Shown: piece after piece, positions 1 through 20,392 of the stretch
How positions within the stretch are numbered: the stretch's first letter is position 1
How the letters are laid out: the number at the start of each line of letters is the position of its first letter
Virus record (IMG/VR): IMGVR_UViG_3300032282_004841
Span: 1 to 62,933 of that record
Reading direction: 5' to 3' (one strand)
From: a virus
Taxonomy: Duplodnaviria > Caudoviricetes
DNA: 62,933 nt
Translations under genes and position numbers: made by a program
Notes under the pieces: model-generated
Told to the model about the DNA's origin: nothing
Database searches by the model: none
The model's input: the letters and a program-made list of their open reading frames with translations, nothing else

Positions 1-93
1 AAGACAGAAACAACTAGAGATAAAATTATTTTAAAATTAAAAGCGATAACCGAATCCATTAATCACTGGGAAGAAGAAAGAGTTAAAAAATGA
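1..93 (+). CDS. 3' end of upstream gene (partial, runs off window)
   Basis: Frame 1 is open from base 1 (KTETTRDK...NHWEEERVKK*); its TGA overlaps the next ATG (ATGA at 90-93), as elsewhere in this cluster. Confidence 0.6.
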   Translation, partial: KTETTRDKIILKLKAITESINHWEEERVKK

Positions 94-1918: not shown

Positions 1919-1939
1919 TTTGATTTGAGTAAGACACTT

Positions 1940-1963
1940 GTTACAATGCTAAAATATTGTAAC
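1940..1963 (+). promoter_or_regulatory. Perfect 8-bp inverted repeat enclosing an extended -10-like element
   Basis: GTTACAAT-gctaaaat-ATTGTAAC; TGcTAAAAT at 1947-1955; TTGAGT at 1925-1930; directly upstream of SD GAGG and ATG 1973, in the only real gap of the + cluster. Confidence 0.5.
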
Positions 1964-1972
1964 GAGGTGCAA

Positions 1973-2806: not shown

Positions 2807-3282
2807 AAGTAAATTTGTTAATCAATGAAAAGCATTTAGCAAAAGCAGGATATTTAAATATAGATCCTTATGCAAAAAAAGAAGATGAACCTTTGATTGT
2901 TGAAGGAAATCCAACGGTTTTAGAAAACCTTGTAGAAGACGGAGAAGCAGAAGAAATAATAGCTATTAATATAATAGATTATGTTTCTCATCCAAAAGTT
3001 AATATGATCTTAAAACAATTCTTTGGAAAACTATCTCATAAAGGTATTCTAAGAATAGGATTTACTGATATATTAGCTACTGCTAGAAGATATTATATTG
3101 GACAAATAGAAGAATCAAAAATAGCAGAAATGCTTTATGGTAAGTGTGTAGATAGTTGGGATACAAAAAAGGCTGCTTTGACATTAGATTCGATGAAAAC
3201 AAAAATGGAAGAAATTGGATTTGTAATAAAAAGCGTTAAATTCATAGAACACTTTATAGTTATAGAGGGAGAAAGACCTTGA
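2803..3282 (+). CDS. Class I SAM-methyltransferase-like protein with degenerate motif I
   Basis: KVNL...GYLNID...EEIIA..IIDYV...LKQFFGKLSHKGILRI..TD follows the small phage Methyltransf_11-like pattern but lacks GCG; start at ATGA overlap 2803. Confidence 0.55.
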   Translation: MKVNLLINEKHLAKAGYLNIDPYAKKEDEPLIVEGNPTVLENLVEDGEAEEIIAINIIDYVSHPKVNMILKQFFGKLSHKGILRIGFTDILATARRYYIGQIEESKIAEMLYGKCVDSWDTKKAALTLDSMKTKMEEIGFVIKSVKFIEHFIVIEGERP

Positions 3283-4109
3283 GCGAAAATGATAAGTTTA
3301 TGGACACGGCGTGTAAAAATTGTATTTTTTCTGAAAAAGTTGGAAATACTCAGATGGGTTGTAGCTATGGAAACATAGAACGATTTAAAAAAGTTAATTG
3401 TGAAATCATAGAAGCAGAAGACGAAGCAGATAATTTTTTTGTTATTAAAAATAGACTTTGCATGGCTCTTAGAGTTGGTGCTTGGGGTTCTGATCTTACG
3501 CAAGAAGAAAAGATTCTAAAAGTAAGAAAAGACATTACTACAAAAATAACATGTATTTTAATTATAAAAAAAGAAACATCAAACATAGATGATGTTTTAG
3601 ACACTTTTAAAAGTGCGATATCACAAAAAACCAGTTTTGATTCTATACATTTCATTATTGAGAAGGGAGGATCTATTAAGATCGGCTCTTTAATGAATAG
3701 TATTAAAAAAATTGACTGTAATGTAAAATGGTTTGTCAAACAGCTTGTGCATGATGATTTTTCATACAGGCATGGTATAGATGAAATTGTAGAAAAGCTT
3801 AAGTCTGTTTTTTCTGCCGTATTTGTTTGTGGTTTTAAGATACCTGACGATTTTGTTCATTGTATAGACACAAGCATTAATGAAGAACTAAATAGATTTA
3901 TAATACTTAAGCCAGTTGATGAAAACGGAATGGTTGTGCAAAACAAAAGCTTTAATTTATTTGGCGGTAACAGGGAAGCAATTAATGATTTAGACAATAA
4001 TAAATTTATGTCTATTTCTGAAAAAATAGATTATATAGCAAAAGATCAAAACCTGAATCATTTAATACAGGATATCGTTTCTATATGTCCATCAATGAAT
4101 CAAAAATAG
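3279..4109 (+). CDS. Hypothetical protein with Cys-rich N-terminus, possibly GT-A-derived
   Basis: TTG start overlapping the previous stop; CKNC..C..C cluster; context within GT cluster. Confidence 0.55.
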   Translation: MSENDKFMDTACKNCIFSEKVGNTQMGCSYGNIERFKKVNCEIIEAEDEADNFFVIKNRLCMALRVGAWGSDLTQEEKILKVRKDITTKITCILIIKKETSNIDDVLDTFKSAISQKTSFDSIHFIIEKGGSIKIGSLMNSIKKIDCNVKWFVKQLVHDDFSYRHGIDEIVEKLKSVFSAVFVCGFKIPDDFVHCIDTSINEELNRFIILKPVDENGMVVQNKSFNLFGGNREAINDLDNNKFMSISEKIDYIAKDQNLNHLIQDIVSICPSMNQK

Positions 4110-4738
4110 CGATTATGGTTTTTTTTGATAAGTATTCTTCTACTATTAAAGATTTAATACAAAGCATTTCTTTGTGTTCTTCTTTTGATATTTGTTTGTA
4201 TTTATTAGATAACGAGTTATCTTCTGATATTAGTGATGAGATATTGGGGATGATGGGCGAATTAACTATAGAAGAAAAAAAAGACAACATAGTTTTTACC
4301 AAGGGTCGTTATAAAAATTTAGAGATTATACTTACAAAAGTGTGTGAGTTTGATAGAGAAACGGTATTGAATTATTTTACATATGAATATATGACTTCCT
4401 ATGACATCGTTGGAGTGTTTAATAAGAATGTTGTTTTTTATCCTCATATTATAGATTCAGTTTCTTCTGTTCTTAAGAAAGATAGCTTTATTACTGGTTG
4501 TTGTTATTCTAATTGCGATGTGCTTACAAAAAATGGTTATAGATATTCTGATTATAAAAAATCTTTTTCTTGCAATAAAGAAAACTCAAATAGTTATAAT
4601 TTTTTTATTAGTAAGCTAGCAATAGAAACAACCAAACCTAAAAACATTTTTACAAAAAACAAAAATCCAACTTTGATTATTGGAGAAAACTTTCTTTGCC
4701 AAAGAATTAACGAAAAACTATACATGGTGAAAGAATGA
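4085..4738 (+). CDS. Hypothetical protein, possibly degenerate GT2-like
   Basis: 217-aa coupled ORF; weak GT-A-like pattern (YDIVGVFNKNVVFYP..I) without DxD. Confidence 0.5.
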   Translation: MSINESKIAIMVFFDKYSSTIKDLIQSISLCSSFDICLYLLDNELSSDISDEILGMMGELTIEEKKDNIVFTKGRYKNLEIILTKVCEFDRETVLNYFTYEYMTSYDIVGVFNKNVVFYPHIIDSVSSVLKKDSFITGCCYSNCDVLTKNGYRYSDYKKSFSCNKENSNSYNFFISKLAIETTKPKNIFTKNKNPTLIIGENFLCQRINEKLYMVKE

Positions 4739-5418
4739 TAAATGCTTGCGTTATAATACCAGCTGCTGGAATTGGTAAAAGAATGAAGTCTCACGGTCCT
4801 AAAGCCAATATTAAAATAGATAATAAAAACACGGTTATAAATAGGGCCGTTTCTATATTAAACAAAAGCTTTGGAAAAATTCAAATAAATGTCATTCTTG
4901 GTTTTCAAAAAGAAAAAATTGACATGTCTAATAATAATTTAAATTTTATAGTCAATGAAGATTTTGAGACAACAAATGTTTCTAAGTCTATAAACATAGG
5001 AATTAAAAGTTCAAAAAGAAAAGACTGTTTAATTATATATGGAGATCTAGTATTTAAAAAAGACATATTTAAAAATTTTAATTTTGAAAATAGTTGTATA
5101 TGGGTTGAAAAAAGCGATAAAAGAAATTCTGAAATAGGCGTTAACATAATAGATGGAGCAGTAGAGCATTTTAGTTATGGGATTTTTCCTAAATGGGCGC
5201 AGATTGTATTCTTAAAGGAAAAAGATAAAAAGATATTTCTTGAGATATCCAATAACAAAAAAACAAACAAATGGTTTGGTTATGAGATTTTAAATAAAAT
5301 GATAGATAAAGGTATAATCTTTTCTGTCAACTACATAGATGAAATAGTTGAGATAGATACATATTTAGACATAATAAAGGCTAAGAAGTTTGTGAGGAAA
5401 AATGAAAATATTATGTAG
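4735..5418 (+). CDS. Sugar/choline-phosphate nucleotidyltransferase (NTP_transf_3, LicC-like)
   Basis: IIPAAGIGKRMKSHGPK, NEDFETTN, IIYGDLVF and EIDTYLDI motifs. Confidence 0.8.
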   Translation: MINACVIIPAAGIGKRMKSHGPKANIKIDNKNTVINRAVSILNKSFGKIQINVILGFQKEKIDMSNNNLNFIVNEDFETTNVSKSINIGIKSSKRKDCLIIYGDLVFKKDIFKNFNFENSCIWVEKSDKRNSEIGVNIIDGAVEHFSYGIFPKWAQIVFLKEKDKKIFLEISNNKKTNKWFGYEILNKMIDKGIIFSVNYIDEIVEIDTYLDIIKAKKFVRKNENIM

Positions 5419-6415
5419 GCAAGATTCAGGAAAAAGATTTAGACAACTTTCTGGTTTTGGAAAAGTCTTTTCAGACATTGGATGCGATTTTATTTTCTGG
5501 AACGGAGAAAAGAAATCAACATTTGATGCGTTCTACGAACAAAATCCAGATATCTATATATGCAGCACTTCAGATGTAGATACCGCTTTAATAAAATGCT
5601 TAAAAAAACACAGCAATACAAAAGTAATACTTATCGCTTCGTTATCACACGAAGAAGTTTCTAATAATAAATTTGCTAAAATAAATGAAATTGAAAATGT
5701 AAAAACTATGTTTAATGAGATAGGCAAGCCAAATTTAATTATTGGTAATTGTTCTTCTTTTACTTTTGATAAGTGCATGTCTGTTTGGAAAAAATTAGGA
5801 TGCAATACGATAGCATCTCCAGTAGCTTCTGATTTCTATCTTTCTGTAAACCCATTGGCTGTTGAAAAATTTGTATCAGATGTTGTTCATGTTGGAAATT
5901 TTACTGATTACAAATCGAAAGACTTAGAAGAGATATTATTTCCTTTGCATTATGATGACTCTATAAATTTAAAAATATTTGGCAAAAAAGAATGGCCCTT
6001 AACAAGTTATGTTGGGTTTATAAACAACTACGATTTAAAGAATGTTATAAAATCATCTAAAATATGTGCTGTTATATCAAAGCCTCATACTAAAAAGTTT
6101 GGATTTGATGCTCCCCAGTTTCTTTTTGATGTTCTATCATCGGGTGGATTCCCCATTTGTGATTATTCTGAAGATGTCAATTTCTTACTTGGCGATTATC
6201 TTTTGCTTGCTAAAAATAAAGATGAATATTTAAATATGGTTCACGATATGTTAAAGCGAGATGTCAAAAGAGATGAGATGTCATCAATTGCTCGCTCGTT
6301 CATTCTCAACAATCATACATATCATCATAGATTGATAGACATATTAATAAATATTAACATGGAAGATCTTGCTATTAAGATATCTGATAATTTCTTAAAA
6401 AGAAAAGGTGACTAA
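5402..6415 (+). CDS. CgeB/YkvP-like glycosyltransferase (Glyco_trans_1_2)
   Basis: DVVHVGN, LKIFGKKEW, FDVLSSGGFPICD and C-terminal NHTYHHRL motifs. Confidence 0.75.
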   Translation: MKILCRQDSGKRFRQLSGFGKVFSDIGCDFIFWNGEKKSTFDAFYEQNPDIYICSTSDVDTALIKCLKKHSNTKVILIASLSHEEVSNNKFAKINEIENVKTMFNEIGKPNLIIGNCSSFTFDKCMSVWKKLGCNTIASPVASDFYLSVNPLAVEKFVSDVVHVGNFTDYKSKDLEEILFPLHYDDSINLKIFGKKEWPLTSYVGFINNYDLKNVIKSSKICAVISKPHTKKFGFDAPQFLFDVLSSGGFPICDYSEDVNFLLGDYLLLAKNKDEYLNMVHDMLKRDVKRDEMSSIARSFILNNHTYHHRLIDILININMEDLAIKISDNFLKRKGD

Positions 6416-7107
6416 TGAGTTTATCTATATTACTAACTCCTGATAATAATTTAGTTTATTTCAGAAGATGTCTTTATCACATATCTAGATTTACTAAAAC
6501 ACTTCTTGAAAAGAATGAGAAGTTTGAACTAGTAGTAATTGACGATGGAAGTTTTGACATTTATCCAGAAGTAGAAGCATTTGGTATAAACTTTTTTTGG
6601 AAAATAGTAAGGCCACATTACAATTCTTTAGAAAAAGTTGGAATAGACAAGCTCTATAAATTTCCAAATTACTCAGAACGGCTAGCGTTTGACAATTGCG
6701 CTTATGATAAAATAATTAAAATATCTGCGAATGTAATACCTGTACAAGATTCTTTGCCAAAGCTTTATTCGTCTGAGGTTTTAAACGGATGGAATTTGTC
6801 AAATGTTTTTGGAATAGATCCATCTATAGAAGACAGAATTGATACATACGGAGTTTTCTTTCCTAAGAATGTTAAAGAACTTTCTGATCCGAATCCTATT
6901 CAAACAGATTTATATATAAAATACAAAAGACCTGTATTTGGAATTACAAAAAAAGAATTTTATTGGTCAGACGATTTTAATGTTTTGTATGATGCATACG
7001 CACTCTCTTTTATGCAAGACGATTCGCTGTTTAAAAATGATGGCGTTGAAGATTCTAAACTTATAGATTTAAAAGAAAATATCGAAGTAATTACTAATAT
7101 ACTATGA
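6415..7107 (+). CDS. GT2-like protein (N-terminal GT-A motif only)
   Basis: LSILL.....FRRCL....FELVVIDDGS; no clear downstream DxD. Confidence 0.55.
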   Translation: MSLSILLTPDNNLVYFRRCLYHISRFTKTLLEKNEKFELVVIDDGSFDIYPEVEAFGINFFWKIVRPHYNSLEKVGIDKLYKFPNYSERLAFDNCAYDKIIKISANVIPVQDSLPKLYSSEVLNGWNLSNVFGIDPSIEDRIDTYGVFFPKNVKELSDPNPIQTDLYIKYKRPVFGITKKEFYWSDDFNVLYDAYALSFMQDDSLFKNDGVEDSKLIDLKENIEVITNIL

Positions 7108-8039
7108 TCATAACAAAAACCCCATTACGAATAACCTTTTTAGGTTCCCTTACGGATAATCCTAAATGGCATTCCGAAAACAAAGGAATGGTCATAGGAT
7201 CATCTATAAATAAATATGTTTATTGCTTTGTAAGAAAGCTGAGTGCTTATGAGAAGCAAAAAGAAATAACTTGTCCTTATATAAAAAATGTTTTAAATTA
7301 TTTTAAAGAAAAATCAATAGATTGTTCTAATTTTGAGATAACTCATTTTTGTGACTTGCCTTCAAATTCTGGACTTGGTTATCAATCTGCACTAACTGTC
7401 GGATTACTTCAAGCAATACATGCAATTAGTAACATATACATATCAAAAAAAGACATTGCTAATTTATGTAACTGCATACTACAAAAGAACTTATGTAATT
7501 TTATATCATCGGCGGATGCTTTTTTATCTGTTTACGGAGGACAAAACATTGTTAAGTTCAATAAAAGCGATGATGTTTTAATGATCCCCTTAAAGATAAA
7601 GCATGATAATCTACAAGCCCTTTTAGACCGCATAGGACTGTATTATTTAAACTCTTTTGACCAAATAGACTCTCAGCCCAATGAAATGCCAGAAATTGAT
7701 TTTAAACGCAATATGTGGCCATTGGTTAAAATTACTGAAGATGGTGCTGAGGTATTGTTATCATCTTTTGATCTTGAAGAGTTTTTTAGACTGATAAAAA
7801 GCTCTTTTAAGGCAAGGGCGTTGTTCTTCTTTAGAATGTTTACGAAGTATTCATCTGATTTCTTTGACAGGTGTGTATTTTCTAAGCTATTAGGGTTTGA
7901 TTTGATGAACGACAATGGCTCTGGATGCGGTATTATTTATACAGATAAGCCTATTAGTGAAATTCATTTAGAGCTTTTAAAAGACTACGAGAGAGTTCCA
8001 TTTAATTTTGAAAGTAATGGGAGTAGCATAATATTATGA
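7104..8039 (+). CDS. GHMP sugar kinase homologue (HddA-like), motifs degenerate
   Basis: MIITKTPLRITFLGSLTD, SINKYVY, DLPSNSGLGYQSAL, YGGQN, terminal VPFNFESNGS. Confidence 0.8.
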   Translation: MIITKTPLRITFLGSLTDNPKWHSENKGMVIGSSINKYVYCFVRKLSAYEKQKEITCPYIKNVLNYFKEKSIDCSNFEITHFCDLPSNSGLGYQSALTVGLLQAIHAISNIYISKKDIANLCNCILQKNLCNFISSADAFLSVYGGQNIVKFNKSDDVLMIPLKIKHDNLQALLDRIGLYYLNSFDQIDSQPNEMPEIDFKRNMWPLVKITEDGAEVLLSSFDLEEFFRLIKSSFKARALFFFRMFTKYSSDFFDRCVFSKLLGFDLMNDNGSGCGIIYTDKPISEIHLELLKDYERVPFNFESNGSSIIL

Positions 8040-8506
8040 GAATAGGATTTGCGATAGATAGTGATTGTAACTCACAATTTATGTATTCTGTTTTTGAACA
8101 AACTAAATATTTTATAGGCGATGTACTATTCTTTTGCGAAAGAAAAGGCAACTCTCTATTAAACTATAATATTTGTAGTTTTCCAATTGAAGATTCTTTT
8201 TACTTTACTCAATCCCCATTGATTGCCACTAGTATAAATACTGCTAAGAGTATTTTAAACAATTACTCAAACACTAAGAAGTATCTATATCTATATGACT
8301 TGGAGTGGTATCAAAAAATAAGTAGGTTTAACTACGATCATTTTGAACAAATATATAGAAATAAAGACTTAGAAATCATTGCAGAAAACGAAGATTTTGC
8401 TAAAATATTTACTAGGTGTTGGAATAGAAAACCATGTGCTGTAATACCAAAAACTAATCTCAACGAAATATATAGGTTATATTATGGACATTCAAAAAGT
8501 AATTGA
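8036..8506 (+). CDS. Hypothetical protein (GT-B N-terminal-like fragment)
   Basis: LIATSINTA...YLYLYDLEW resembles the IAT...YF.QD.E segment of GT4 N-domains; coupled ORF. Confidence 0.45.
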   Translation: MRIGFAIDSDCNSQFMYSVFEQTKYFIGDVLFFCERKGNSLLNYNICSFPIEDSFYFTQSPLIATSINTAKSILNNYSNTKKYLYLYDLEWYQKISRFNYDHFEQIYRNKDLEIIAENEDFAKIFTRCWNRKPCAVIPKTNLNEIYRLYYGHSKSN

Positions 8507-9254
8507 CTGTTATGTTAATGAGAATATGTCAACCTATCAAATAGCTAGGAAATTTAAAACATATCCTAATAAAGTTAGGCGTGAATTAATTAAAAGCGGA
8601 ATTACAATCAGAGATCATTCTGAAGCACAGGCAAAAGCTTTAGAAACAGGAATTGCCAAACACCCCACAAAAGGCAAAAAAGTTAATCAAGAAACCAAAG
8701 AAAAAATTGGCGAGTCTATGCTTAACTCTTGGAAACAAATGGATGCTACCGAAAGAAAACGCCGTTCTGATATATCGAAAAAGAATTGGGAATCAATGTC
8801 AAATTCAAAGATAGAAGAGATGAGGTCTGAGAGCGCATTAGCAGTTAGAAAAGCTAGTAGAGAAGGAAGCAAGCTTGAAAAATATTTAATGGCTGGATTA
8901 CTGTCTATGGGATATTCAGCTTCTATGCACTATCTTTTTGCTCAAAAACAACATATAGATATTTTTGTTTCTTCTCCCGATGATAAGAATAAAGGTATAG
9001 CAATAGAAGTTGATGGGCCTACTCATTTTAAACCAATTTGGGGAAATGAAAGCCTACATAAGCAAAAGAAAAGCGATAATAAAAAAACTGGATTGCTTTT
9101 GGCAGGAGGATATATATTAATAAGAGTTGTGACCAACGGAGAAGATTCTGATATTCGTATGAAAAAGACCTTGACCAAGATAGATCAGACGATACAATGT
9201 ACTAAGTTGGAAAGCGATAAAAATTATTTCGAGATCTTCACAGAGGAATTTTAA
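8484..9254 (+). CDS. HTH + NUMOD3-like + Vsr/DUF559-type PD-(D/E)xK endonuclease
   Basis: N-terminal MSTYQIA..FKTYPNKVRR helix-turn-helix; KGKKVNQETKEKIGES; C-terminal IDIFV...IAIEVDGPTHF...D..K...GYILIRV. Confidence 0.75.
   Translation: MDIQKVIDCYVNENMSTYQIARKFKTYPNKVRRELIKSGITIRDHSEAQAKALETGIAKHPTKGKKVNQETKEKIGESMLNSWKQMDATERKRRSDISKKNWESMSNSKIEEMRSESALAVRKASREGSKLEKYLMAGLLSMGYSASMHYLFAQKQHIDIFVSSPDDKNKGIAIEVDGPTHFKPIWGNESLHKQKKSDNKKTGLLLAGGYILIRVVTNGEDSDIRMKKTLTKIDQTIQCTKLESDKNYFEIFTEEF
9171..9198 (+). promoter_or_regulatory. Sigma70-like promoter inside the 3' end of the endonuclease gene
   Basis: TTGACC-16 nt-TACAAT, ~55 nt upstream of ATG 9254 (SD GAGGA). Confidence 0.5.
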
Positions 9255-9922
9255 TGCCAGAAAATGAAAAGCCTAGTTTTAACTCTCCAGAGTGGAACGA
9301 TTATGTTCTTTCTCTATTTACCAACGAAGAACTTGTAGACGGCAATCCAACCGTTGATGGGCTTCGCAGGGTGACAGAATTAGTTCTTGGAAAAATAATT
9401 TCTACATCTGTAGATATTGTTCAAGCCCCAAGTATGTCTAATGGGAATTGTTGTGTTCTAAAATATAGAATCAATATAGTTCCAGATAATATAGACATTA
9501 AAGAAACTCTTTCTTATGAAGCTGCTGCTGATTGCAGTTCAAACAATTGTGATGCAAGGTTTGCTGTTTTTGCTACTGCTGTAGCAGAGACAAGGGCTGA
9601 AGGTCGTGTTCTTAGGAAGGCGCTTAGATTAAGGAAAGTTATAGCTGCTGAAGAAGCAGTTGCTGTTCCTCATGAAGATTCGCTTTCTGATGGAAGAATT
9701 ACACAGACTCAGATAAAGTTTATTGAGGTTCTTTCGCAAAGAAATGACATCAATATAGTTAAGTATCTTTCCGCTGCTAAAGATTTTAAATTTACTGGAA
9801 GACTAGAAGATATTCCTTATAAAAGTGCTGTTACTGTAATAGCTCATTTAAGCGAAATGCAAAGGAACAATGCTTCTATTTCCCCCAAGTTCAAGGGCTT
9901 TGAACAAGACTGGAGAAAGTAA
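9254..9922 (+). CDS. Putative single-strand annealing recombination protein (Rad52-like fold)
   Basis: VDGLRRV; AVAETRAEGRVLRKAL...AAEE helix motif; C-terminal ITQTQIKFI domain typical of phage SSAPs. Confidence 0.5.
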   Translation: MPENEKPSFNSPEWNDYVLSLFTNEELVDGNPTVDGLRRVTELVLGKIISTSVDIVQAPSMSNGNCCVLKYRINIVPDNIDIKETLSYEAAADCSSNNCDARFAVFATAVAETRAEGRVLRKALRLRKVIAAEEAVAVPHEDSLSDGRITQTQIKFIEVLSQRNDINIVKYLSAAKDFKFTGRLEDIPYKSAVTVIAHLSEMQRNNASISPKFKGFEQDWRK

Positions 9923-10290
9923 TGAAGGCTAATGTAAAAGTTCATTTCGGAACAATCGAAATCGATGGCGAAAGTGTTAAAGACATTTTTAGAGAGATGT
10001 CGAATGTTCATGAGATTTTTAACGAATCTAAATGCGGGTGCTGTGGCGGAACTGATATTAGGCCAAGTACTAGAAGCGTAGAGAAGAATAAAAAGAACTA
10101 TGAATACTTTGAGTTTGCATGTAATAGTCCAAAATGTAGGGCCAGATTGAATTTTGGCCAAAGGCAAGACGGCGGTGGTCTTTTCCCAATTAGGCGATTA
10201 GATGAAAATGGAAAACCAGATCGAGAAAACGGACAGTACGGACCACACAATGGTTGGTCAAAGTACCGTGGAGAAGCAAAAGAAGAGTAA
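9922..10290 (+). CDS. Zn-ribbon-containing hypothetical protein
   Basis: CGCCGG and CNSPKC cysteine pairs; TAATG-coupled to the SSAP gene. Confidence 0.65.
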   Translation: MKANVKVHFGTIEIDGESVKDIFREMSNVHEIFNESKCGCCGGTDIRPSTRSVEKNKKNYEYFEFACNSPKCRARLNFGQRQDGGGLFPIRRLDENGKPDRENGQYGPHNGWSKYRGEAKEE

Positions 10291-10451
10291 TTTCATCTCT
10301 ACTATTTTGCTAACTAATAGTTCTATTGCTAATAGCCTTAGATCTATGACCGTAGATGATTTAATTGGGGAGATAGAGTGGTTTAAGAAAACCGATCTCC
10401 CTTTTTCTTCTGAAGTTAAAGTGTTATTTGAGAGCGAGCTTGATAATAGGT

Positions 10452-11114
10452 TTAAAGATACTCAAGACTTACATAAAGTCCATACTGAGTCTTAGAACCA
10501 ATACCTGTTGGCGATGCAGTCAACCCTAAATACCAATCATGTCTTAGTCCTGATCCTGTGGTATTTCCAACAGCATTAAGACCGCTTGTACCAGGAGAAT
10601 TTCTTAAAGGAAGGAAGTTTGCTACTTCGGTAACATCTTTCCATGTTCCAGAACCAGAACCAACAACTAACTGAGATGGGTCTGGATGAACTACTTCATA
10701 TGCAAATGTGCTAACACCACTTGCTTTGCTTGCAATACTACTTCTATCATAAATTATTACTTTTGCATTTTGTGTTCTAACATTTGTAGTTGGGTGTGTA
10801 AATCTAATGTTTAAAGTAGACAGATAATTAGGAATTTTATTAACAGCTATTGAAGTCGAACTTCCTGGGGTTTCTTGCCCAAGAATAGCAGATGCTGCTG
10901 CTGTCCACTTTACATTCCTAGCTTCTAACCCTTGTGTAACTCCAGAGCCATCTGTGATAAATGTTCTCTCTTGAAAACTATTTACCTGTACAGATGTTCC
11001 AAATCCATTGCCGTAAAAACCCAATCCGCTTCCTGCCGGAGCATTTATATTATGCTCTCCAGAAACGCCATTTGTCAGTGGATTAACATAGAAAGATATA
11101 CTTGGGGTAGCCAT
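10452..11114 (-). CDS. Putative virion structural protein (Ser/Gly/Thr-rich, beta-rich)
   Basis: Last gene of the structural operon; strong SD AGGAG; own GGTGTAA motif upstream. Confidence 0.6.
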   Translation of the reverse strand: MATPSISFYVNPLTNGVSGEHNINAPAGSGLGFYGNGFGTSVQVNSFQERTFITDGSGVTQGLEARNVKWTAAASAILGQETPGSSTSIAVNKIPNYLSTLNIRFTHPTTNVRTQNAKVIIYDRSSIASKASGVSTFAYEVVHPDPSQLVVGSGSGTWKDVTEVANFLPLRNSPGTSGLNAVGNTTGSGLRHDWYLGLTASPTGIGSKTQYGLYVSLEYL

Positions 11115-11137: not shown

Positions 11138-11151
11138 TAATAATTACACCA
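11138..11151 (-). promoter_or_regulatory. Putative phage late promoter motif, copy 1
   Basis: TGGTGTAATTATTA, ~36 nt upstream of ATG 11114; overlaps the GT stop codon. Confidence 0.5.
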
Positions 11152-11956
11152 TTTTTGAATCTTCGAACCTTTTAATAGAAGTTAAAAGTTCTTCAGGGGT
11201 TATTTGTTTGCTAAAATGCTCTATTACTTCCCCTATGTCTAAGCCTAGCTCATGCCATCCTATTAGATAATTAACTATCCTGTCAACTAAAGAAAGTCTA
11301 TAAGGAACACCATTAGGGCGACCAAATCTATGAACCCACTTTAAAAATGGAAGGCATAGTGTTCTACCCCCATTTTGTCTAACCTTTTCTTGCATATAAC
11401 CTTCTTCTCCACCAAATCCCTTAAACTTTCTATTGAACGAAGGCCAGTTAGCCTTTTTCATGCAGAACAAGCCCATTCCTTGCATTGTTATGTCAAAAGG
11501 ATCACCTCTATGCACCAATGGGTCTAAGCCCCAAACACCGTACATGTGGCCTGACCATACAGGTGTAAAGTGAGTCGCCATGTTTTTCATATCGTCATAT
11601 AGTAATGGCCCTTGGAGAAGGTCTTTTTCAAGTCCTTTAATGGCTATATAATCTTTTAAATTTCTTATTACATTAGGGGCGAGCAATATGTGTGAGTCTA
11701 GGCAAAGCACATAGTCTTTAGTAGCCCTTTCAAATACGAAGTTTTTAGCTTCTGAAGGAGTATTAGCAGCACTAGGTTCATGAAAGTATTTAGTGTCTGT
11801 TAAATTACAAACTTTTTTAAGCTCTGAACAACCATTTTCTTCAGTATCTATGACTAAAATTTCGCAGTCTTGTACATCTTGATAAAGGCGAAGCGCCTGT
11901 ATTGTAAAGTAGCATCCATCAAAGTCTTTATAGGTTGGCATTCCTATTGTTATCAT
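11144..11956 (-). CDS. GT-A glycosyltransferase with GT2 N-terminus and GT27 (ppGalNAc-T)-like motifs
   Basis: ITIGMPTY, EILVID, CLDSH (DxH), TMQGMGLF, FGGEEGY, QNGG, VHRF...PY. Confidence 0.85.
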   Translation of the reverse strand: MITIGMPTYKDFDGCYFTIQALRLYQDVQDCEILVIDTEENGCSELKKVCNLTDTKYFHEPSAANTPSEAKNFVFERATKDYVLCLDSHILLAPNVIRNLKDYIAIKGLEKDLLQGPLLYDDMKNMATHFTPVWSGHMYGVWGLDPLVHRGDPFDITMQGMGLFCMKKANWPSFNRKFKGFGGEEGYMQEKVRQNGGRTLCLPFLKWVHRFGRPNGVPYRLSLVDRIVNYLIGWHELGLDIGEVIEHFSKQITPEELLTSIKRFEDSKMV

Positions 11957-11971: not shown

Positions 11972-12508
11972 CTACTGTTGAATATTTTCTATTTTTTGAT
12001 ACGGTATATACCATTGTATAGAAGCGCTCAGGTTTTCAAAAGTAATAGTGGCTTTTTTAGGACTATTAGTAGCACAACCACCTTGATGATCGTGTGTTTC
12101 AACGCTATATCTTTCATAGGTTAAGTATGTAACCATTTTAGTTCCATCTGCAATAGATGGCAGTTTTATATTTCCAGAACCCCAATCAAGCGTTATTAAT
12201 AAAAATAATTCTCCAGAAGCACTTTGAGTTAACGCATAGGAAACAATAATAGTGCCTTCTGGATTAGTATTATACCATCCAAAATACAAATCAAATTTTT
12301 CTTGTGCTGACGAACTTAAATTTCTAACATAAAATGTTTCACTTCCACCAGAAGATGTATTATCTCCACTCCATATAACTCGATTAGGACTAGGACCCGC
12401 CACGCAAGAGTATCCATTTCTCCATTCCTTATATACTAAAGCTGTGTCTAAGTCTCTACCTGTAAATTGTTGACAGCATCCACACCCTTGTATTATTTCT
12501 GTTATCAT
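11972..12508 (-). CDS. Hypothetical tail-tip protein with N-terminal CGCC
   Basis: Directly follows the 1143-aa tip gene; MITEIIQGCGCCQQ. Confidence 0.55.
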   Translation of the reverse strand: MITEIIQGCGCCQQFTGRDLDTALVYKEWRNGYSCVAGPSPNRVIWSGDNTSSGGSETFYVRNLSSSAQEKFDLYFGWYNTNPEGTIIVSYALTQSASGELFLLITLDWGSGNIKLPSIADGTKMVTYLTYERYSVETHDHQGGCATNSPKKATITFENLSASIQWYIPYQKIENIQQ

Positions 12509-12510: not shown

Positions 12511-15500
12511 TTAATATCCTGGAGTCGTAGTAGTAGGAGTTAAAGTAGTAGTCGTAGTTCCAGTACCGCTACCACTAGCCACAACTTCTTTTAATAGCCC
12601 ATTTTTAAATTTCATCACTTTCTTTTCTATCACTAAACTTGACCCACTACAAGTAACGCTGTGTATATATGGCACATCTTCTGTTTGTCCACTAGCCGAT
12701 AATTCTATAGGAACTCCAAACCATGTATTTAAATTAGCATCAAAAAGACCCATTACAGTTTTGATTGGATTTATTCCAGTTCCACTCCAATCTTTTCCAG
12801 ACCCATTAAATATCTTTACTACTACAGGAGTACCTAACTTAGTTAATTTGCTTCCATTAAAATTACTATAAATATAACCGCTTCCAAACTCTCCTGTCTT
12901 TACTAATCCTGTTCCTTCCACAGAAAAAGTAGCTACACTATTATTAGTCCAAACGCCCCTACCTTCATCCCAAACTAAATCTACAGGGCCTGTTTTAAAC
13001 GAATTTGTTTGCTGTACTATTAGTTCTTTATTATCTTGCGATGATGGATAAGGCTCGCTAATTCTGTCTTTTCCTACCTTTGGAACTGCCTGTAAAGTAT
13101 ATCGATCAAATCCCCATCCAGACAACATTAATGGACCTCTAAGAGCAAACGGTTTTAAGTTTACAAGATCTAAAGTTTCGTTCTCTTTGTTTTGACCCTC
13201 ATTAAATGTATTTGCATAGATACACGCAACATCTGAAAGCGTTCCAAACGGATTTAAACTTCTAGTATTTAAATAAGATCCAGTATTTTGAGGGTCTGTT
13301 AATGCGGGTAAGTATTCGCCCACATTTTCTAACTCTTTTGGAATTTCCCCTACAGATCCATAATAATTATAATAAGGTCTTATTAATCCATCTAAGGACA
13401 TTGCTGCTGTATTTACTGTTGGTCCAAGTCTTCCATATAAAAATCTTTCTGCATCATCTGAATCCCCAGTTTGTATTTTTGTTATAATAGTAGGATTGCC
13501 ATTATCTGTTTGCGTTATATCCGTAGCAGACATAAACCATATATGAGGACTATTAAGTTTTAAATTTCTTTGTTTTCTTTTAACTCTATTCAAAGCATCC
13601 AGTCCAATTCTTGCAGATAATCTTAATTGAGCTATGTCATAGTCTGTTGCAGAAACAGTTTCTAAAATTCTAGACTTTACATCTTTAACCGTATCGCTAA
13701 AGTTTTTTATTTGATTTATTCTTGTTTGATTAAAAGTTCCAAACTTTGGAGAAAATCTTCTAAATCTATATGTGGTACTATATCCAGATTTTGAATCTAT
13801 AGTAATACTTATAGCGCTTATAGAGACTCCTACAAACTGCATTATATTTCCAAACTCAGTAGTTGGCAGTCCTGTTATAGTTAGATCGCCCTCTTCATTT
13901 AATTGTGATTTACTTAGACTATTAGCTACTGTTTGTCTTGCATAATCATTCATTATCCTTGTGCTTCCCCAATTCCAAGGGGTTAGCTGACTATCTAAAT
14001 CTACTTGTGTCTTTCCAACATTTCCAACCGCTGCCCAAGGTCCATAACTTTGTGTTAAATCTTTTACTGGTATTCCAGCACCCAATGGATTGTTTGGAGC
14101 ATCTTGAATTGTAGGAGGTTTAAATTTAGTTCCAAACCCCGGCCTACCCATAGACACTAATTTATTTTGTTGATCTATAGTATCCGATTTTAATACCGCC
14201 ATTGGCGTATTCCAAACTGGATATGGAAATTTTTTCATCGATGTATCGTATCTATATATGCAACCTTCATTAGTTATAAAGCTTTGTCCATCCATATAAG
14301 GATATCCAAAATCTGCTTGATTAGCTGGATTACCCAAAATCATTTCCGCCCCGCCATCCGAAGGAACTACATATCCTCCAGCACTCCATCCAATAGACTT
14401 ATCAACTTTTACTCCAGAAATTAAAAATGGCTTAAATCTCATGTCGCTAGAAATTAATTGATTTATATTGTATCCATCGTTAAAAGTAACAAGTCCGGCT
14501 TCCCATTCTGGAAACCAAGCAGATCCAACCGCTTCTCTACTAAATTGGAGTTTGCCATATTCCTGTCTTACAAGAATTTCATCTCCTACAGGATAAGCAA
14601 ATCCCATATGTCCATATGTTTCAGCCAGAGCATCAATAAAAAGTTTAATATTGTCTTCTAAGTCATCTCCTTGTATTAATCCTCTCCTTTCTTTTTGTAA
14701 CAAAAATGCAAATCCATCATCTCTTGCAACTTCTCTTCTTCCGTCTGATCCGCCAAGAGCGACATAAACTGAATATCTATATTTTTTTAAGTATTCTCCA
14801 AGATCTCCATCTCCATCTCCTTTGCCTGATTTAATCTCATTCGCAAATTCTAGTTCATATAATGTAGCGGTAAATATATTTGTTCCTAGCAATCTGGCTA
14901 AGGTATTGTCTTTTATTAAAACAGGAACTATTTCAGTTAAAATTCCATAGCTTTTTTGAGTTGGTTTTTCACCTCCTTGAGTAACTTTCCAATCAACATC
15001 GTTATCACTAGTCGTAGGTAATGGTTTATCATTTAAAGAACTCATAAACAATGTAATTAATGCTGGCTGTCCAAATATTGGCAGTCCATTAAAATCTTTT
15101 CCATAATACCTAGATCCTATTTTTGGAAAATACATAAACTCTTGATTTGGACCAACAATCATTCTTGAAGTCGTAGCATCTTTTGCGATGCTTATTCCTC
15201 TGCTAAAACTAGAAACATTATTTCCAGATCCATTGACAATAAAATCTTGCAAAGCAGAAGTTGAGACTTGATCATATATAGAAACTGTCCTTATTTTTAT
15301 GACATATCCATTTAGCTCTACAAAAAAGTCTAAACCTAATTGGGTACACACACTAGAAACCATAGATAATAAATCTTGTTGAAAATCATTTATAGTTATA
15401 TAAGAGTTTGGTATTTCGCTTAGATCAACAGCATACCTAACGCCAGCAAACATCATAGCACCGCCAAAAATAACATTAGCCCCAGGATTGTTTGTGTATT

Positions 15501-15942
15501 GAGATATGCCAAGTCTGATAATGTCAAAATACATTCCGCTTGGAGTAATCGAAGATCCGGTATAACCAAGCGCACCATAAACATTAAAGACATTTGGGGC
15601 AGTAACAACACCTAAATAATCCTTGCATATAATTGTATAGTTAGAAAGTATAAATCTTGGATCTACTAATTTAGCATCATATAACGGTAGTCCACTTTGA
15701 CTTCCGTTTTGAGAAAAGTTTTCTAATATGCCCTGAAAAGAAAAACCGCTAGACATCGCAAATGTTGCAGGAAGGCCGATCATCAATGATAAATCAGGGC
15801 CAGCATCTGCGCTTACTCCAAAGGCTATATTACCAGGATCTACAACCAAGCCTAAGCTTAATGAAGACTCAGAACTTCCCCATCCGCAATCGGATTTTAT
15901 GCTAGTTACAGAATATCCAGCAAATTGAATAGATCCTGACAT
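12511..15942 (-). CDS. Putative tail-tip / baseplate hub-like protein
   Basis: 1143 aa, third gene downstream of TMP; Gly/aromatic beta-rich; Thr-rich C-terminal tail. Confidence 0.55.
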   Translation of the reverse strand: MSGSIQFAGYSVTSIKSDCGWGSSESSLSLGLVVDPGNIAFGVSADAGPDLSLMIGLPATFAMSSGFSFQGILENFSQNGSQSGLPLYDAKLVDPRFILSNYTIICKDYLGVVTAPNVFNVYGALGYTGSSITPSGMYFDIIRLGISQYTNNPGANVIFGGAMMFAGVRYAVDLSEIPNSYITINDFQQDLLSMVSSVCTQLGLDFFVELNGYVIKIRTVSIYDQVSTSALQDFIVNGSGNNVSSFSRGISIAKDATTSRMIVGPNQEFMYFPKIGSRYYGKDFNGLPIFGQPALITLFMSSLNDKPLPTTSDNDVDWKVTQGGEKPTQKSYGILTEIVPVLIKDNTLARLLGTNIFTATLYELEFANEIKSGKGDGDGDLGEYLKKYRYSVYVALGGSDGRREVARDDGFAFLLQKERRGLIQGDDLEDNIKLFIDALAETYGHMGFAYPVGDEILVRQEYGKLQFSREAVGSAWFPEWEAGLVTFNDGYNINQLISSDMRFKPFLISGVKVDKSIGWSAGGYVVPSDGGAEMILGNPANQADFGYPYMDGQSFITNEGCIYRYDTSMKKFPYPVWNTPMAVLKSDTIDQQNKLVSMGRPGFGTKFKPPTIQDAPNNPLGAGIPVKDLTQSYGPWAAVGNVGKTQVDLDSQLTPWNWGSTRIMNDYARQTVANSLSKSQLNEEGDLTITGLPTTEFGNIMQFVGVSISAISITIDSKSGYSTTYRFRRFSPKFGTFNQTRINQIKNFSDTVKDVKSRILETVSATDYDIAQLRLSARIGLDALNRVKRKQRNLKLNSPHIWFMSATDITQTDNGNPTIITKIQTGDSDDAERFLYGRLGPTVNTAAMSLDGLIRPYYNYYGSVGEIPKELENVGEYLPALTDPQNTGSYLNTRSLNPFGTLSDVACIYANTFNEGQNKENETLDLVNLKPFALRGPLMLSGWGFDRYTLQAVPKVGKDRISEPYPSSQDNKELIVQQTNSFKTGPVDLVWDEGRGVWTNNSVATFSVEGTGLVKTGEFGSGYIYSNFNGSKLTKLGTPVVVKIFNGSGKDWSGTGINPIKTVMGLFDANLNTWFGVPIELSASGQTEDVPYIHSVTCSGSSLVIEKKVMKFKNGLLKEVVASGSGTGTTTTTLTPTTTTPGY

Positions 15943-17431: not shown

Positions 17432-20392
17432 TTAGAAACCTCTTATATACATAGTTGTATTATTAATAATCAAACCTTTAGTTAATGGCATAGCTAAACT
17501 AGTAGAGTTGCTAAATGTTAAGTTGTTAGATATGTACATCGTAAAACTTTCTGGCAAATAAAACGATGAATATCCATTTATATACATAGACATAGTATTA
17601 CTTGTACTAGGAGTTCTTTCAATGTACATATTTAAACTTTGATTAAATGGCAAAGCCCCATTGCTTGTTTCTTCTGTTTTTATAGTTAAAATAAAAGTGT
17701 TTGATTTAATTCTAGTGTCATTTTGCAAAAACAATGTGCTTGAATTAGTACTGTATGAAAGTTCTGATCGTATAAACATATTAACATTTGCAATAAATTT
17801 AAAACTTTCTTGAGCTAGCATAAACAAGTTCATCGTAGAGCTAAATACTTGTCCTTCTATGTATAAAGATCTTCCTGCTATTATCTGTGTAAGACTGTCT
17901 ATGCCTAATGAATTTATATACAACGGCGTTGAATTAGTTACTTGTACAGGTTCTACAACTTTTATAAATAACGGAATTTTTTCATTTTTAGGATCTGCAC
18001 CAATATACAAGTTTGTCGTATTTGAGTATTCATTAAAACCTTTTATAAACAATGTTCTTATTGGACTTGAAGATGGATCTAATTGAGTTGAATGTCCATT
18101 TATAAACAATGTGGTTGATATGCTTTGTTCGCCATAAATAAATAATGTTGTGTTGCTATTTAAATCGGGCGATAATTGTAATACTAAAGGCAATCCAGGA
18201 TTCGTAGTTTCATAAGTATTTGCTGCGATTGTATACAATGTTGTTTTATTATTTAAGTTTGGCGATAGCTGCAATACTAATGGTAATCCTGGATTTGAAG
18301 TTTTATAAGTATCTATACCGCTTATAAATAATGTTTTAGATTCTAATATTCTAGCATCTGCTCTTAAAGTAATAGGTTCTGAAAAAAAAGTAGGAAGATA
18401 ACTAGTAGATGGTATATCAGAAACGCTTGTCGCTATGTTATTCCAGTTTATATTATCTTGTACTGGCGCTCCCAAAGAAAAAAATGTAAATTTAGCATTT
18501 CCAGAACCTGTAGATGTTATATTGTTTTCTGTTCCGTTATATTTTCCAAATTTTACTTTTGGCAATCCATAACTTCCAACCCCATAACTACCAACTATAA
18601 ATTTGTATATTCCTTCTATCCAATAGTTTGCAGTTTGTGAATAATATGAAAAGAATGGAGGTGGATCGGCTAACGGATTTTTATTTGTGTTTGCAACTAA
18701 ACATGTAAAATAAATTCCATCTATTAATACTATATCAAATACTATATAGCCAGAAGAAGAGTTCCAATTAGAACTATTGATTAATCCAATCGGTAAATCA
18801 TCACCTTCTATTTTTACAAAAGTATTATTAGTACTACTTAAATAAGATGTTAATTTAAATCTTTCATCTGAAAATTCAAATGTATTTTGTAATACATCAA
18901 CAGTAGAAGAGTTTAAAGTTAAATCAACCGAAAAATTCATAGGTTCTTTTAAAGATACATTTTTTTTAGCTTGTACTATAGATGTGCGTTCTTCACTTTC
19001 TTTGAACAAACTTATTGAATATGGAGGATAAGGAAGACTAACATATTGAGAAGAAATTGTTTTGTATTTATAAGAAATTATATCATTAGTAGAATAAGAA
19101 CCGTTTATGTCGTACTCGCCTAAATAATTAGGTCTTAATGCATAGTCAGGATTGGTATTTTTTCCTATCGTACTATTAAGAATAGGATATGAATAAATAA
19201 AATATTTAAATCTAAAGTCTATGCTTTCGCCTTCTAGCAAATTTCCAGTAAAATAAGCATCTATTGTAGCCTTTCCTTTTATAAATTTGGTATTTCCTCT
19301 AGGACCTACAAGACTCATATTTGCGACCTTGGTAGTAATATTTTTATTTACTATTTCTACCTCGAAATTATAAGTAGTATAACCAGTACTATAATTGTAA
19401 TAAGATCCATTTACTGTTTGTGTCCAATCAAATGACTGTATTCCATTTCCATCTAATATTGTTATTTCTATGGGTGGCTCTAAATAATTTTGCTGCTGAA
19501 AGCTTTTGTATAAATACGCAAAAGAAGGAACATTATCAAATTTTATAAAACATGGATAAGAATATTTTCTGCCATTACCATCAAAATAAATTTTTTGTAT
19601 TTCTTCTATTGGTATTGTTTCATTATAAAATCTTAAATCGTCTATGTTTAAATTTATTGGATTGGTATTGTCATACCCGCCCATATAGAATCTATTCATA
19701 GAAGTACCAAGAATTTGAGCTAGACTAAAGTAATTATTGTCAATTAATGTTGTGTATCTATATAAATCTACCATTCTTTGCAATTGATAATTGTATGTTT
19801 CTCCGTACTTATATTTCAAAGGATTAAAAACTTCTATTAGATTTGCATCTATGTAAAAACTAATTGGTTGATAGGAAACAGCTGCGCTTGCATCATATAT
19901 TGTATCTTGCGTTATTGTTATTAAATGCCAAGTGTCTGGCGAAAAGGTATTGGTTGCGCTTTGTATAAGCTTTACATATTTTGTAAGATCCCAAAGACTT
20001 CCGTTCTGAAGATATTGGTAATGCTGTAAGTAAAGTTTTAATGAATTGTTTTCTTGGTCAATGTCTATTTGTAATGCGTAATCAAAACCAGCGCTATCAT
20101 TCGTAGAATACATTCTTGCTATAGTCCCAGGATCTCCGCCATCTGTAGTTATAAACTTTACCCAAAAAGATATAGAAAATGTACTATTACTAGACACGCC
20201 ATAAGTTGATGGATCAAAATAAAATCCTAGAGCAGAAAGATCAAATCTAGATCTATAGCATCTCCCTAAATTTGTTAGTCCGTCTTCATAAGCTGCTAAA
20301 GGGGCAACAAAACCTCCGTTATATTGCAACGCTGTTTGGTTAAGATCGTCATATAAAGTATCTTCAAAAGAAAATATTCTGGAAATTGCCAT
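17432..20392 (-). CDS. LamG/ConA-like domain tail protein with C-terminal (TTL[FY]I.G)-type repeats
   Basis: FSISFWVKF, DTWHLITIT, FYIDA and IDDLRFYNETI..EEI..IY LamG motifs; repeated TTLFI/MNLFM/MSMYI strands. Confidence 0.7.
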   Translation of the reverse strand: MAISRIFSFEDTLYDDLNQTALQYNGGFVAPLAAYEDGLTNLGRCYRSRFDLSALGFYFDPSTYGVSSNSTFSISFWVKFITTDGGDPGTIARMYSTNDSAGFDYALQIDIDQENNSLKLYLQHYQYLQNGSLWDLTKYVKLIQSATNTFSPDTWHLITITQDTIYDASAAVSYQPISFYIDANLIEVFNPLKYKYGETYNYQLQRMVDLYRYTTLIDNNYFSLAQILGTSMNRFYMGGYDNTNPINLNIDDLRFYNETIPIEEIQKIYFDGNGRKYSYPCFIKFDNVPSFAYLYKSFQQQNYLEPPIEITILDGNGIQSFDWTQTVNGSYYNYSTGYTTYNFEVEIVNKNITTKVANMSLVGPRGNTKFIKGKATIDAYFTGNLLEGESIDFRFKYFIYSYPILNSTIGKNTNPDYALRPNYLGEYDINGSYSTNDIISYKYKTISSQYVSLPYPPYSISLFKESEERTSIVQAKKNVSLKEPMNFSVDLTLNSSTVDVLQNTFEFSDERFKLTSYLSSTNNTFVKIEGDDLPIGLINSSNWNSSSGYIVFDIVLIDGIYFTCLVANTNKNPLADPPPFFSYYSQTANYWIEGIYKFIVGSYGVGSYGLPKVKFGKYNGTENNITSTGSGNAKFTFFSLGAPVQDNINWNNIATSVSDIPSTSYLPTFFSEPITLRADARILESKTLFISGIDTYKTSNPGLPLVLQLSPNLNNKTTLYTIAANTYETTNPGLPLVLQLSPDLNSNTTLFIYGEQSISTTLFINGHSTQLDPSSSPIRTLFIKGFNEYSNTTNLYIGADPKNEKIPLFIKVVEPVQVTNSTPLYINSLGIDSLTQIIAGRSLYIEGQVFSSTMNLFMLAQESFKFIANVNMFIRSELSYSTNSSTLFLQNDTRIKSNTFILTIKTEETSNGALPFNQSLNMYIERTPSTSNTMSMYINGYSSFYLPESFTMYISNNLTFSNSTSLAMPLTKGLIINNTTMYIRGF
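18148..18309 (-). repeat. 90-nt period tandem duplication within LamG gene
   Basis: YKTSNPGLPLVLQLSPNLNNKTTL vs YETTNPGLPLVLQLSPDLNSNTTL. Confidence 0.8.

Follow-up and report, generated by a model that had tools for sequence, protein, structure and literature searches.

Results

A fragment of 62.9 kb from the record of an uncultured virus (IMGVR_UViG_3300032282_004841; 62,933 nucleotides (nt), hereafter the window), which comes from an aquatic-type phage with a G+C content of ~33%, encodes a soluble GT-A glycosyltransferase of 270 amino acids (aa) at positions 11144-11956 on the minus strand. On balance, this enzyme is likely to be a protein Thr-tract O-glycosyltransferase that acts on the phage's own virion proteins. 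Glycosylation of virion Thr runs is favored because the predicted fold is like that of the polypeptide N-acetylgalactosamine transferases (ppGalNAc-Ts) and because the family recurs beside poly-Thr proteins in both phages and bacteria. More tentatively, and with somewhat less than even confidence, we suggest that the family as a whole may be an undescribed group of prokaryotic and viral enzymes that O-glycosylate threonine in polypeptides; as bare domains, they would parallel the eukaryotic mucin initiators and would possibly be related to them by descent. Under this wider proposal, phages of many lineages would use the enzyme to make mucin-like brushes of glycan out of the poly-Thr linkers and tails found in their fibers, tail tips, and heads, and bacteria would couple the domain to leader-peptide recognition and kinase domains in order to glycosylate small Thr-rich proteins in the cytoplasm prior to their export by the twin-arginine translocation (Tat) route.

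A large GT-A family with invariant motifs

The list of open reading frames (ORFs) and the translation confirm the position, strand, and length of the gene, which begins with ATG, and contain all of the motifs that an earlier note on this DNA had quoted, namely CLDSH (residues 85-89), TMQGMGLF (157-164), FGGEEGY (181-187), RQNGG (193-197), VHRF (208-211), and PY (218-219). We aligned 42 family sequences with 46-93% identity to the window protein (alignment A1). In the N-terminal part, C85, D87, H89, Q115-G116-P117, D121, and W134 are invariant in all 42 sequences, as are M158-Q159-G160, G162, F181-G182, E184-E185, Y187, K191, R193, G196, H209-R210-F211, and R213 in the C-terminal part. This invariance implies that the quoted motifs are functional rather than chance resemblances. 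The Pfam model PF00535 (Glycos_transf_2) matches residues 4-104 with an E value of 2e-7 (31.5 bits against a cutoff of 23.3), and this nucleotide-binding half is the only half that is recognized. The same model is matched by 42/42 family members and, together with the GT-A fold of the AlphaFold model described below, upholds the assignment of the gene as a GT-A glycosyltransferase.

The enzyme belongs to a large GT-A family that has no curated model of its own. Among 2089 candidates that share sequence words with it, 1676 proteins were matched at E ≤ 0.001, and an exhaustive search of representatives returned 1623 clusters at E ≤ 0.001, 1004 of them at E ≤ 1e-30. Relatives are encoded in 486 of the 501 viral-contig stretches that matched either of two motif patterns and in 451 of the 549 pattern-matching stretches of bacterial genomes. 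Searches of the PHROGs returned no family for the enzyme or for its four nearest minus-strand neighbors. Likewise, tblastn against 50,697 GenBank phage records, a set from which close relatives of the window are possibly absent, gave no match to the enzyme. A search of the full-text literature, supplements aside, retrieved general papers on phage glycosyltransferases but no paper on this enzyme family or on the pairing of phage poly-Thr with a glycosyltransferase.

Fold and relation to polypeptide GalNAc-transferases

The AlphaFold model computed from alignment A1 has a GT-A fold and high confidence values (predicted local distance difference test (pLDDT) score, 95.1; predicted template modeling (pTM) score, 0.92). 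A Foldseek comparison with the PDB, which the earlier note had proposed as a check, gave ppGalNAc-Ts as all 31 matches listed (ranks 1-50), and the best match among those listed was 4d0z_F (E = 5.5e-14, TMq = 0.75, 13% identity). A structural search with VIA-align, which is independent of Foldseek, against 48,161 representatives placed mouse GalNAc-T1 first (8v9q; Z = 22.4, root mean square deviation = 3.0, 253/270 residues aligned) and Toxoplasma TgGalNAc-T3 second (8uhv; Z = 21.6). These two representatives are ahead of the other GT-A folds by about 3-4 Z units, the next matches being the chondroitin polymerase K4CP (18.3), B4GALNT1 (17.6), GlfT2 (17.5), TarS (17.4), TarP (16.5), and SunS (13.7).

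The two halves of the protein were also compared with the PDB at the level of sequence profiles. The profile of the full family matched TarP (6h1j) with an E value of 2e-6 through the N-terminal half (residues 2-112) and GalNAc-T7 with an E value of 0.23; the N-terminal half also matches chondroitin synthase and TarS. When the profile of the C-terminal half was used, the sole PDB sequence at E ≤ 10 was GalNAc-T7 (6iwq; E = 0.086). This alignment pairs PMQGlGlF with PAMAGGLF, GFGGEE with IWGGEN, aGGk with CGGK, and WvH with vGH, which reproduces the pairing of motifs with ppGalNAc-Ts that had been drawn by eye, and it places H209 against the His of the ...VGH... motif of GalNAc-T7. The single-sequence search of the PDB returned no GT27 protein at E ≤ 10 and only chance-level matches (flavodoxin at E = 0.065, cyclophilins). 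The FGGEE segment aligns with WGGEN, the Gal/GalNAc-T motif. PF02709 (Glyco_transf_7C) is weakly matched by 12/42 family members (best E = 0.011) but not by the window protein, and it is found in 20-82% of the members of some neighboring Atlas clusters.

Comparing the phage enzyme with the eukaryotic GT27 ppGalNAc-Ts, which provide its best whole-length fold matches (mouse GalNAc-T1, 8v9q; human GalNAc-T2, 4d0z/2ffu; GalNAc-T7, 6iwq; and Toxoplasma GalNAc-T3, 8uhv), the model resembles the GT27 catalytic domain in both fold and active-site layout. Both have a DxH motif and a distal His, and the MxGG-LF, GGE, and GG motifs follow in equal order. In GT27, the DxH motif and the distal His are the Mn2+ ligands. 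By analogy, D87, H89, and H209 would form the corresponding conserved D-x-H plus His metal site. Both groups are also genomically paired with Ser/Thr-rich, mucin-like tracts. However, GT27 enzymes carry a ricin-type lectin domain as well as an N-terminal anchor and stem, whereas the phage enzyme has neither and ends in a short helical C terminus. No Ricin_B match was found in the enzyme, whose last residue, 270, follows three short helices, and no membrane anchor or stem is present, as the first beta strand begins at residue 2 with no N-terminal extension. Moreover, GT27 enzymes act in the Golgi, whereas the phage enzyme would act in the cytoplasm. CAZy families are defined by sequence, and we do not place the enzyme in GT27 because it has no significant sequence match to that family and differs from it in domain content and topology. 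Thus, the earlier claim of likeness to ppGalNAc-Ts stands for the fold and the motif order but not for membership in GT27. In effect, the enzyme would be a lectin-less prokaryotic or viral counterpart of the catalytic domain of a polypeptide GalNAc-transferase.

The match to TarP bears on a different explanation, in which the acceptor is a host envelope polymer or a lipid-linked precursor (wall teichoic acid, O-antigen, or capsule), the enzyme alters the surface of the infected cell, and its place in the tail block is incidental. Phage-borne TarP and Gtr systems act on host envelope polymers. TarP and TarS are GT2 wall teichoic acid glycosyltransferases, TarP is likewise phage-encoded and, among PDB sequences, matches the nucleotide-binding half best, and TarS and chondroitin synthase match this half as well. 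In addition, NCBIfam returned weak matches only, to exopolysaccharide transferases and far below the cutoffs, and fusions of the kind seen in polysaccharide loci, to other GT2, GT25, LicD, methyltransferase, or sulfotransferase domains, occur in some family members. However, these sequence matches are confined to the generic nucleotide-binding half (residues 2-112), and TarP has a different acceptor half and a DxD motif instead of the DxH of this family. Over the whole fold, the Z scores of TarP and TarS are 16.5 to 17.4, compared with 22.4 for GalNAc-T1. The gene lies in a late structural operon, and an envelope acceptor would leave unexplained both the association with poly-Thr proteins and the PqqD fusions described below. 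We consider this explanation unlikely.

Thr tracts in virion proteins encoded on the strand of the enzyme

If the enzyme modifies virion proteins, its candidate acceptors are encoded on its own strand. From 62,758 down to 10,452, the genes are on the minus strand throughout and encode tail-fiber and collagen-like proteins, giant virion-type proteins of 1573 and 3351 aa, and a tape measure protein of 3911 aa (20392-32127, minus strand; PHROG tape measure families, best E = 9e-16) that marks the tail module. Past the tape measure gene, the order is 986-, 492-, 1143-, and 178-aa proteins, then the enzyme, and then a 220-aa protein. The enzyme gene is separated by 15 nt from the preceding 178-aa ORF and by 29 nt from the following 220-aa ORF, and an AAAGGA ribosome-binding site lies 9 nt 5' of it. 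Promoter-like sites (24 versus 23.4 in shuffles) and terminator-like sites (5 versus 3.7) are not more common than in shuffled sequence. Given these short gaps and site counts, the simplest reading is that the enzyme is cotranscribed with the tail genes and that its gene lies inside a late structural, or tail, operon. The description of the gene as embedded among tail-tip genes holds for its place in the minus-strand run after the tape measure, whereas the "tail-tip" label derives from gene order, because the 986-, 492-, 1143-, 178-, and 220-aa proteins matched no Pfam or PHROG family.

In the window, six Thr tracts are distributed over three virion proteins (1143, 1573, and 3351 aa), all of them encoded on the minus strand. 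The 1143-aa protein of the distal tail block (12511-15942, minus strand; no known family) is encoded two genes upstream of the enzyme and ends in ...GTGTTTTTLTPTTTTPGY. Its Thr-rich C-terminal tail, which had been noticed earlier, spans residues 1122-1142 (12517-12579, minus strand; ASGSGTGTTTTTLTPTTTTPG) and is a candidate acceptor. Two further virion proteins extend this observation. The 1573-aa virion-type protein (50215-54936, minus strand), which matches PHROG virion structural and Ig-like repeat families, has three Thr runs that are candidate acceptors, at residues 70-88 (54673-54729), 921-948 (52093-52176), and 1386-1403 (50728-50781), and the tract scan also located a run at residues 1323-1343 (46172-46234) of the 3351-aa virion-type protein (40145-50200, minus strand), likewise a candidate acceptor; all four runs are encoded on the minus strand. 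Orthologs of the 1143-aa protein (cluster c10) occupy the equal position in 12 related viral loci, and its closest relatives, L001, L002, L004, and L005, retain the Thr tail (…TTTLSPTTTTPS…). A glycosyltransferase gene that lies within or next to structural genes for proteins with Ser/Thr acceptor tracts is what would be expected of a phage virion O-glycosylation system, and the window shows this arrangement.

Association of the enzyme family with poly-Thr proteins in viruses

ORFs were called in 80 viral loci and the window, and six loci in which the enzyme is cut by the locus end (L010, L012, L013, L017, L044, and L068) were left out. The loci were grouped into 30 lineages at ≥70% enzyme identity, and flanks of up to 8 kb on each side were examined for poly-Thr proteins, defined in this locus analysis by at least 9 Thr in 12 residues. 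Such a protein was found in the flanks of 13/30 lineages and always on the strand of the enzyme. The nearest one is encoded at position -1 in seven lineages, at -2 in two, at -3, -4, and -6 in one each, and at +1 in one. Many of the tracts are extreme, with up to ~200 residues of TTTTTTASPTTTTTT-type repeats. Rates by gene order were obtained from one representative per lineage, picked for the completeness of its flanks, and were 5/30 at -1, 4/28 at -2, 2/27 at -3, 1/30 at +1, and 0 at +2 to +4. Among the three genes upstream, 11/85 encode poly-Thr proteins, compared with 1/86 among the three genes downstream (Fisher p = 0.002).

The association was also visible in whole records. We searched for ten consecutive Thr codons (Thr x10, mixed ACN codons) and found them in 22 of the 46 enzyme-bearing viral records, including 6/8 of those at least 90% complete, and in 13/29 lineages. 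As a control, records were picked by an unrelated, arbitrary 18-mer pattern; Thr x10 was present in 1/50 of these arbitrary viral records and in 0/19 of those at least 90% complete, and the lone match was a pure ACG repeat. The resulting Fisher p values are 4.7e-8 by record and 2.8e-6 by lineage. Two other control sets were rejected, namely PhoH-anchored loci (6 loci), which come from the same phage group, and tail-collar-anchored loci (76), which overlap with the enzyme-bearing phages.

The relationship was then viewed from the opposite side with 75 distinct records chosen solely for a Thr x12 tract, several of which are fragments of eukaryotic viruses. The enzyme was found in 2 of the 55 records that were searched for it (0/38 in a first batch that had no positive control and 2/17 in a second; 10/10 positive controls were found). 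As a base rate, at least 486 of 2.9 million contigs carry the enzyme, and the frequency in the sample is far higher (binomial p = 4e-5; with a fivefold base rate, p = 1e-3). In one of the two positive records (L158), the tract-bearing gene stops 12 nt ahead of the enzyme gene, and in the other, the tract is located ~2.3 kb upstream of it. In an unrelated viral fragment (L159), two BNR/sortilin-like repeat proteins with poly-Thr ends and then a basic tail are encoded upstream of a family member (897-2917, minus strand).

In L018 and L022, two relatives of the window phage, a prolyl-hydroxylase-type 2-oxoglutarate-Fe(II) oxygenase adjoins the enzyme on the opposite strand (cluster c151; ~7.2-8.1 kb in L022), a neighbor that recalls hydroxyproline-linked glycosylation. 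A radical-SAM/SPASM enzyme, of a type typical of peptide maturases, adjoins the enzyme gene in two lineages (L050, 8843-9829; L066, gene -1), and another such gene lies no more than 1 kb away from a poly-Thr tract of a record without the enzyme (L088, 1865-2914).

Bacterial relatives suggest a peptide or protein acceptor

In bacteria, the domain occurs mostly within proteins of ~600 aa (median, 613 aa), and the genomes that encode it include Thermomicrobiales, other Chloroflexota, Hyphomicrobiales, Arenicellales, Desulfobulbaceae, and Planctomycetota. Its fusion partners include PqqD, an HPr-kinase-like region (weak matches), ATP-grasp, GT25, other GT2, methyltransferase, sulfotransferase, LicD, and DUF7164 domains, and a PF14907 nucleotidyltransferase neighbors the enzyme in 25/77 bacterial loci. 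PqqD is a peptide-recognition element of pathways for peptides that are made on ribosomes and modified after translation (RiPPs). In lasso-peptide clusters, according to a published study (PMC8498205), HPr-kinase homologs, nucleotidyltransferases of this kind, and PqqD tailor the peptide, with the C-terminal Ser being phosphorylated and glycosylated. By analogy, the PqqD, HPr-kinase-like, and PF14907 partners of the family, known from lasso-peptide tailoring, lend indirect support to a peptide or protein as its acceptor.

The bacterial loci also show the pairing with Thr-rich proteins. A poly-Thr protein is encoded at most one gene away from the enzyme and on its strand in 9/67 loci with a called enzyme ORF, compared with 1/396 ORFs at least four genes away. 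The co-occurrence with poly-Thr tracts that had been proposed as a check was thus seen in whole viral records, in the order of genes, and at the bacterial loci. Many of the bacterial poly-Thr neighbors are small and combine a twin-arginine-like signal (…RRQVLK…) with a conserved …WxKPVVxSVIxPAHA segment and, after it, a Thr run. The small bacterial proteins of cluster b2 (L301, L310, L317, L321, L333, L339, and others) have a twin-arginine-like signal, a conserved …PAHA segment, and a Thr-rich or repeat tail. Their genes, often in several tandem copies, adjoin kinase-like/glycosyltransferase fusion genes, and the proteins resemble precursors from which a glycosylated and exported peptide or protein of an undescribed kind would be made.

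Compared with the RiPP systems of paeninodin and pseudomycoidin, the bacterial family members are likewise accompanied by PqqD, HPr-kinase-like, and PF14907 partners and by small precursor-like proteins. However, neither lasso cyclase nor protease genes were found, and the phage enzyme is a bare catalytic domain without a recognition domain, which would act on large proteins with long runs of Thr. The GT2 S-glycosyltransferase SunS is a much weaker fold match to the phage enzyme (Z = 13.7) than the ppGalNAc-Ts are.

The enzyme could also belong to a virion glycosylation pathway without starting it, and extend a sugar that was first attached by another enzyme, for instance a GT1-type transferase from the plus strand of the window or a host enzyme. 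Further glycosyltransferases and methyltransferases are present near the gene in the window and in several other lineages; moreover, a similar fold does not by itself define the acceptor, because the next-best folds, chondroitin polymerase and B4GALNT1, are sugar-to-sugar enzymes. Such a role is harder to reconcile with the many lineages in which the enzyme is the sole recognizable glycosyltransferase by the poly-Thr gene (for example, L036-L043, L030, L048, and L158) and with the PqqD fusions, which point to direct recognition of a peptide. To us, an extending role appears rather improbable, and direct transfer to Thr remains the preferred reading.

Observations that weigh against virion Thr-tract glycosylation

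Several observations count against the proposal that the enzyme glycosylates Thr runs of virion proteins. In sequence, the similarity of the enzyme to GT27 does not reach significance (E = 0.086 to 0.23, with 12-16% identity in structural alignments). The Thr tail is absent from the distant orthologs of the 1143-aa protein in L018-L029, although the enzyme is kept there. In 17/30 viral lineages, no poly-Thr protein was found in the examined flanks, and 16/29 lineages have no Thr x10 in their records, many of which are fragments. Similarly, 58/67 bacterial loci have no adjacent poly-Thr ORF. The control records were unmatched for habitat and host, so that shared ecology could inflate the record-level association. 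In the reverse sample, 53 of the 55 poly-Thr viral records searched, including 13 that are at least 60% complete, do not encode the enzyme, which indicates that poly-Thr tracts do not depend on this enzyme family. A glycosyltransferase domain was recognized within 2 kb of a tract in 6/80 loci, two of these being members of this family (Pfam, 112 ORFs; most neighbors gave no match). Other transferases may serve the remaining tracts, or some tracts may be unmodified.

Finally, in several lineages, the gene is situated among genes for DnaB, primase, deoxynucleoside monophosphate (dNMP) kinase, and DNA polymerase III alpha or beside terminase, and not in a tail module. Another explanation is that the enzyme counters restriction by glycosylating the DNA of the phage or a precursor nucleotide, and in L050, L064, L069, L073, L077, and L080, the gene does lie between genes for a PD-(D/E)XK nuclease, dNMP kinase, primase/helicase, and DNA polymerase III alpha. 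The window gene, however, is in a tail block far from replication genes. A replication-module record (G064, which holds L050) still has 40 Thr x10 matches elsewhere in the genome, whereas the other record of this kind that was searched (G147, which holds L080) has none. Known DNA glycosyltransferases did not stand out among the best 50 VIA-align matches. Modification of DNA is a very improbable function for the enzyme, and glycosylation of virion Thr tracts is retained as the preferred one.

Proposed mechanism and comparison with known systems

In the mechanism we propose, the soluble cytoplasmic enzyme would use its Rossmann-like half to bind a nucleotide sugar, and D87, H89, and H209 would hold a divalent metal. 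The sugar would then be moved onto the hydroxyls of Thr residues, in unfolded Thr runs of virion proteins that have just been synthesized, either ahead of assembly or in the course of it. Candidate acceptors are the 1143-aa protein, through its tail, and the 1573- and 3351-aa fiber-like proteins, through their Thr runs. The GHMP kinase, nucleotidyltransferase, and GT1 genes on the plus strand could supply the activated sugar and lengthen the glycan. The resulting coat could serve to stiffen linkers, protect against proteases, or mediate adhesion or masking.

Experimentally shown virion glycosylation is, to our knowledge, limited to mycobacteriophages, and Freeman et al. reportedly described virion O-glycosylation in Che8, Corndog, and Myrna in Cell Host Microbe in 2023. 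Mucin-type O-glycosylation, on the other hand, is regarded as a eukaryotic, Golgi-based process. Phage-encoded glycosyltransferases of mycobacteriophages are reported to decorate the phages' own structural proteins at their C termini (PMC12619734). The mycobacteriophage system is the closest known one, as phage enzymes act there on the phage's own structural proteins. The present case differs in the type of host, the window belonging to an aquatic-type phage with 33% G+C, in the enzyme, which is of a distinct family that resembles ppGalNAc-Ts, and in the proposed targets, homopolymeric runs of Thr in proteins of the tail and fibers. What is new is probably the carrying out of phage self-glycosylation, a known kind of process, by an undescribed enzyme family whose predicted structure resembles that of the mucin initiators.

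If this proposal is true, sugar-coated appendages would be widespread among environmental phages, given the 486 viral stretches obtained from two motif patterns alone, and the unexplained poly-Thr linkers of phage structural proteins would gain a biochemical meaning. Such a coat could influence the stability, adhesion, and host recognition of the particles as well as the immune recognition of therapeutic phages. Furthermore, a small, soluble, lectin-free enzyme could be of use for making mucin-like glycopeptides in bacteria, and the origin of the GT27 fold could be linked in a testable way to the peptide-tailoring systems of bacteria.

Other genes of the window

The genes at positions 90-10,495 are on the plus strand and encode three or four GT1-type transferases, PhoH, a MobA/IspD-like nucleotidyltransferase, a GHMP kinase, and an HNH-type endonuclease. 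The GT1-type genes, identified by Pfam, are located at 90-6415, which agrees with the statement in the earlier note that the enzyme gene is opposite in strand to the other glycosyltransferases. Together with the nucleotidyltransferase and the GHMP kinase, they make up a divergent sugar cluster (90-8039, plus strand), into which PhoH is inserted between two GT1 genes (1175-1918). An endonuclease gene of HNH/NUMOD3 and REase_MTES_1575-like type (8484-9254, plus strand) stands between the sugar cluster and the tail block.

The two immediate neighbors of the enzyme gene have no assigned family. The 178-aa ORF directly upstream (11972-12508, minus strand) was a singleton in clustering. The 220-aa Ser/Thr-rich protein directly downstream (10452-11114, minus strand), encoded by the last gene of the minus-strand block, belongs to a cluster (c5) that adjoins the enzyme in 14 related loci as well as in the window; its AlphaFold model had a pLDDT of 37.3 and was unusable.

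A 221-kb relative, from which L001 and L004 derive, contains the enzyme locus twice, ~147 kb apart, and looks like a concatemeric assembly of a ~145-kb genome. Judging from this genome size, the window probably represents less than half of its phage. Only the first ~990 of the 3911 residues of the tape measure protein match tape-measure PHROGs, and the size of this protein implies an exceptionally long tail under the usual length rule. Elsewhere in the minus-strand block, a 739-aa tail-fiber protein with collagen repeats (54893-57112, minus strand) carries a CBM_5_12 carbohydrate-binding module.

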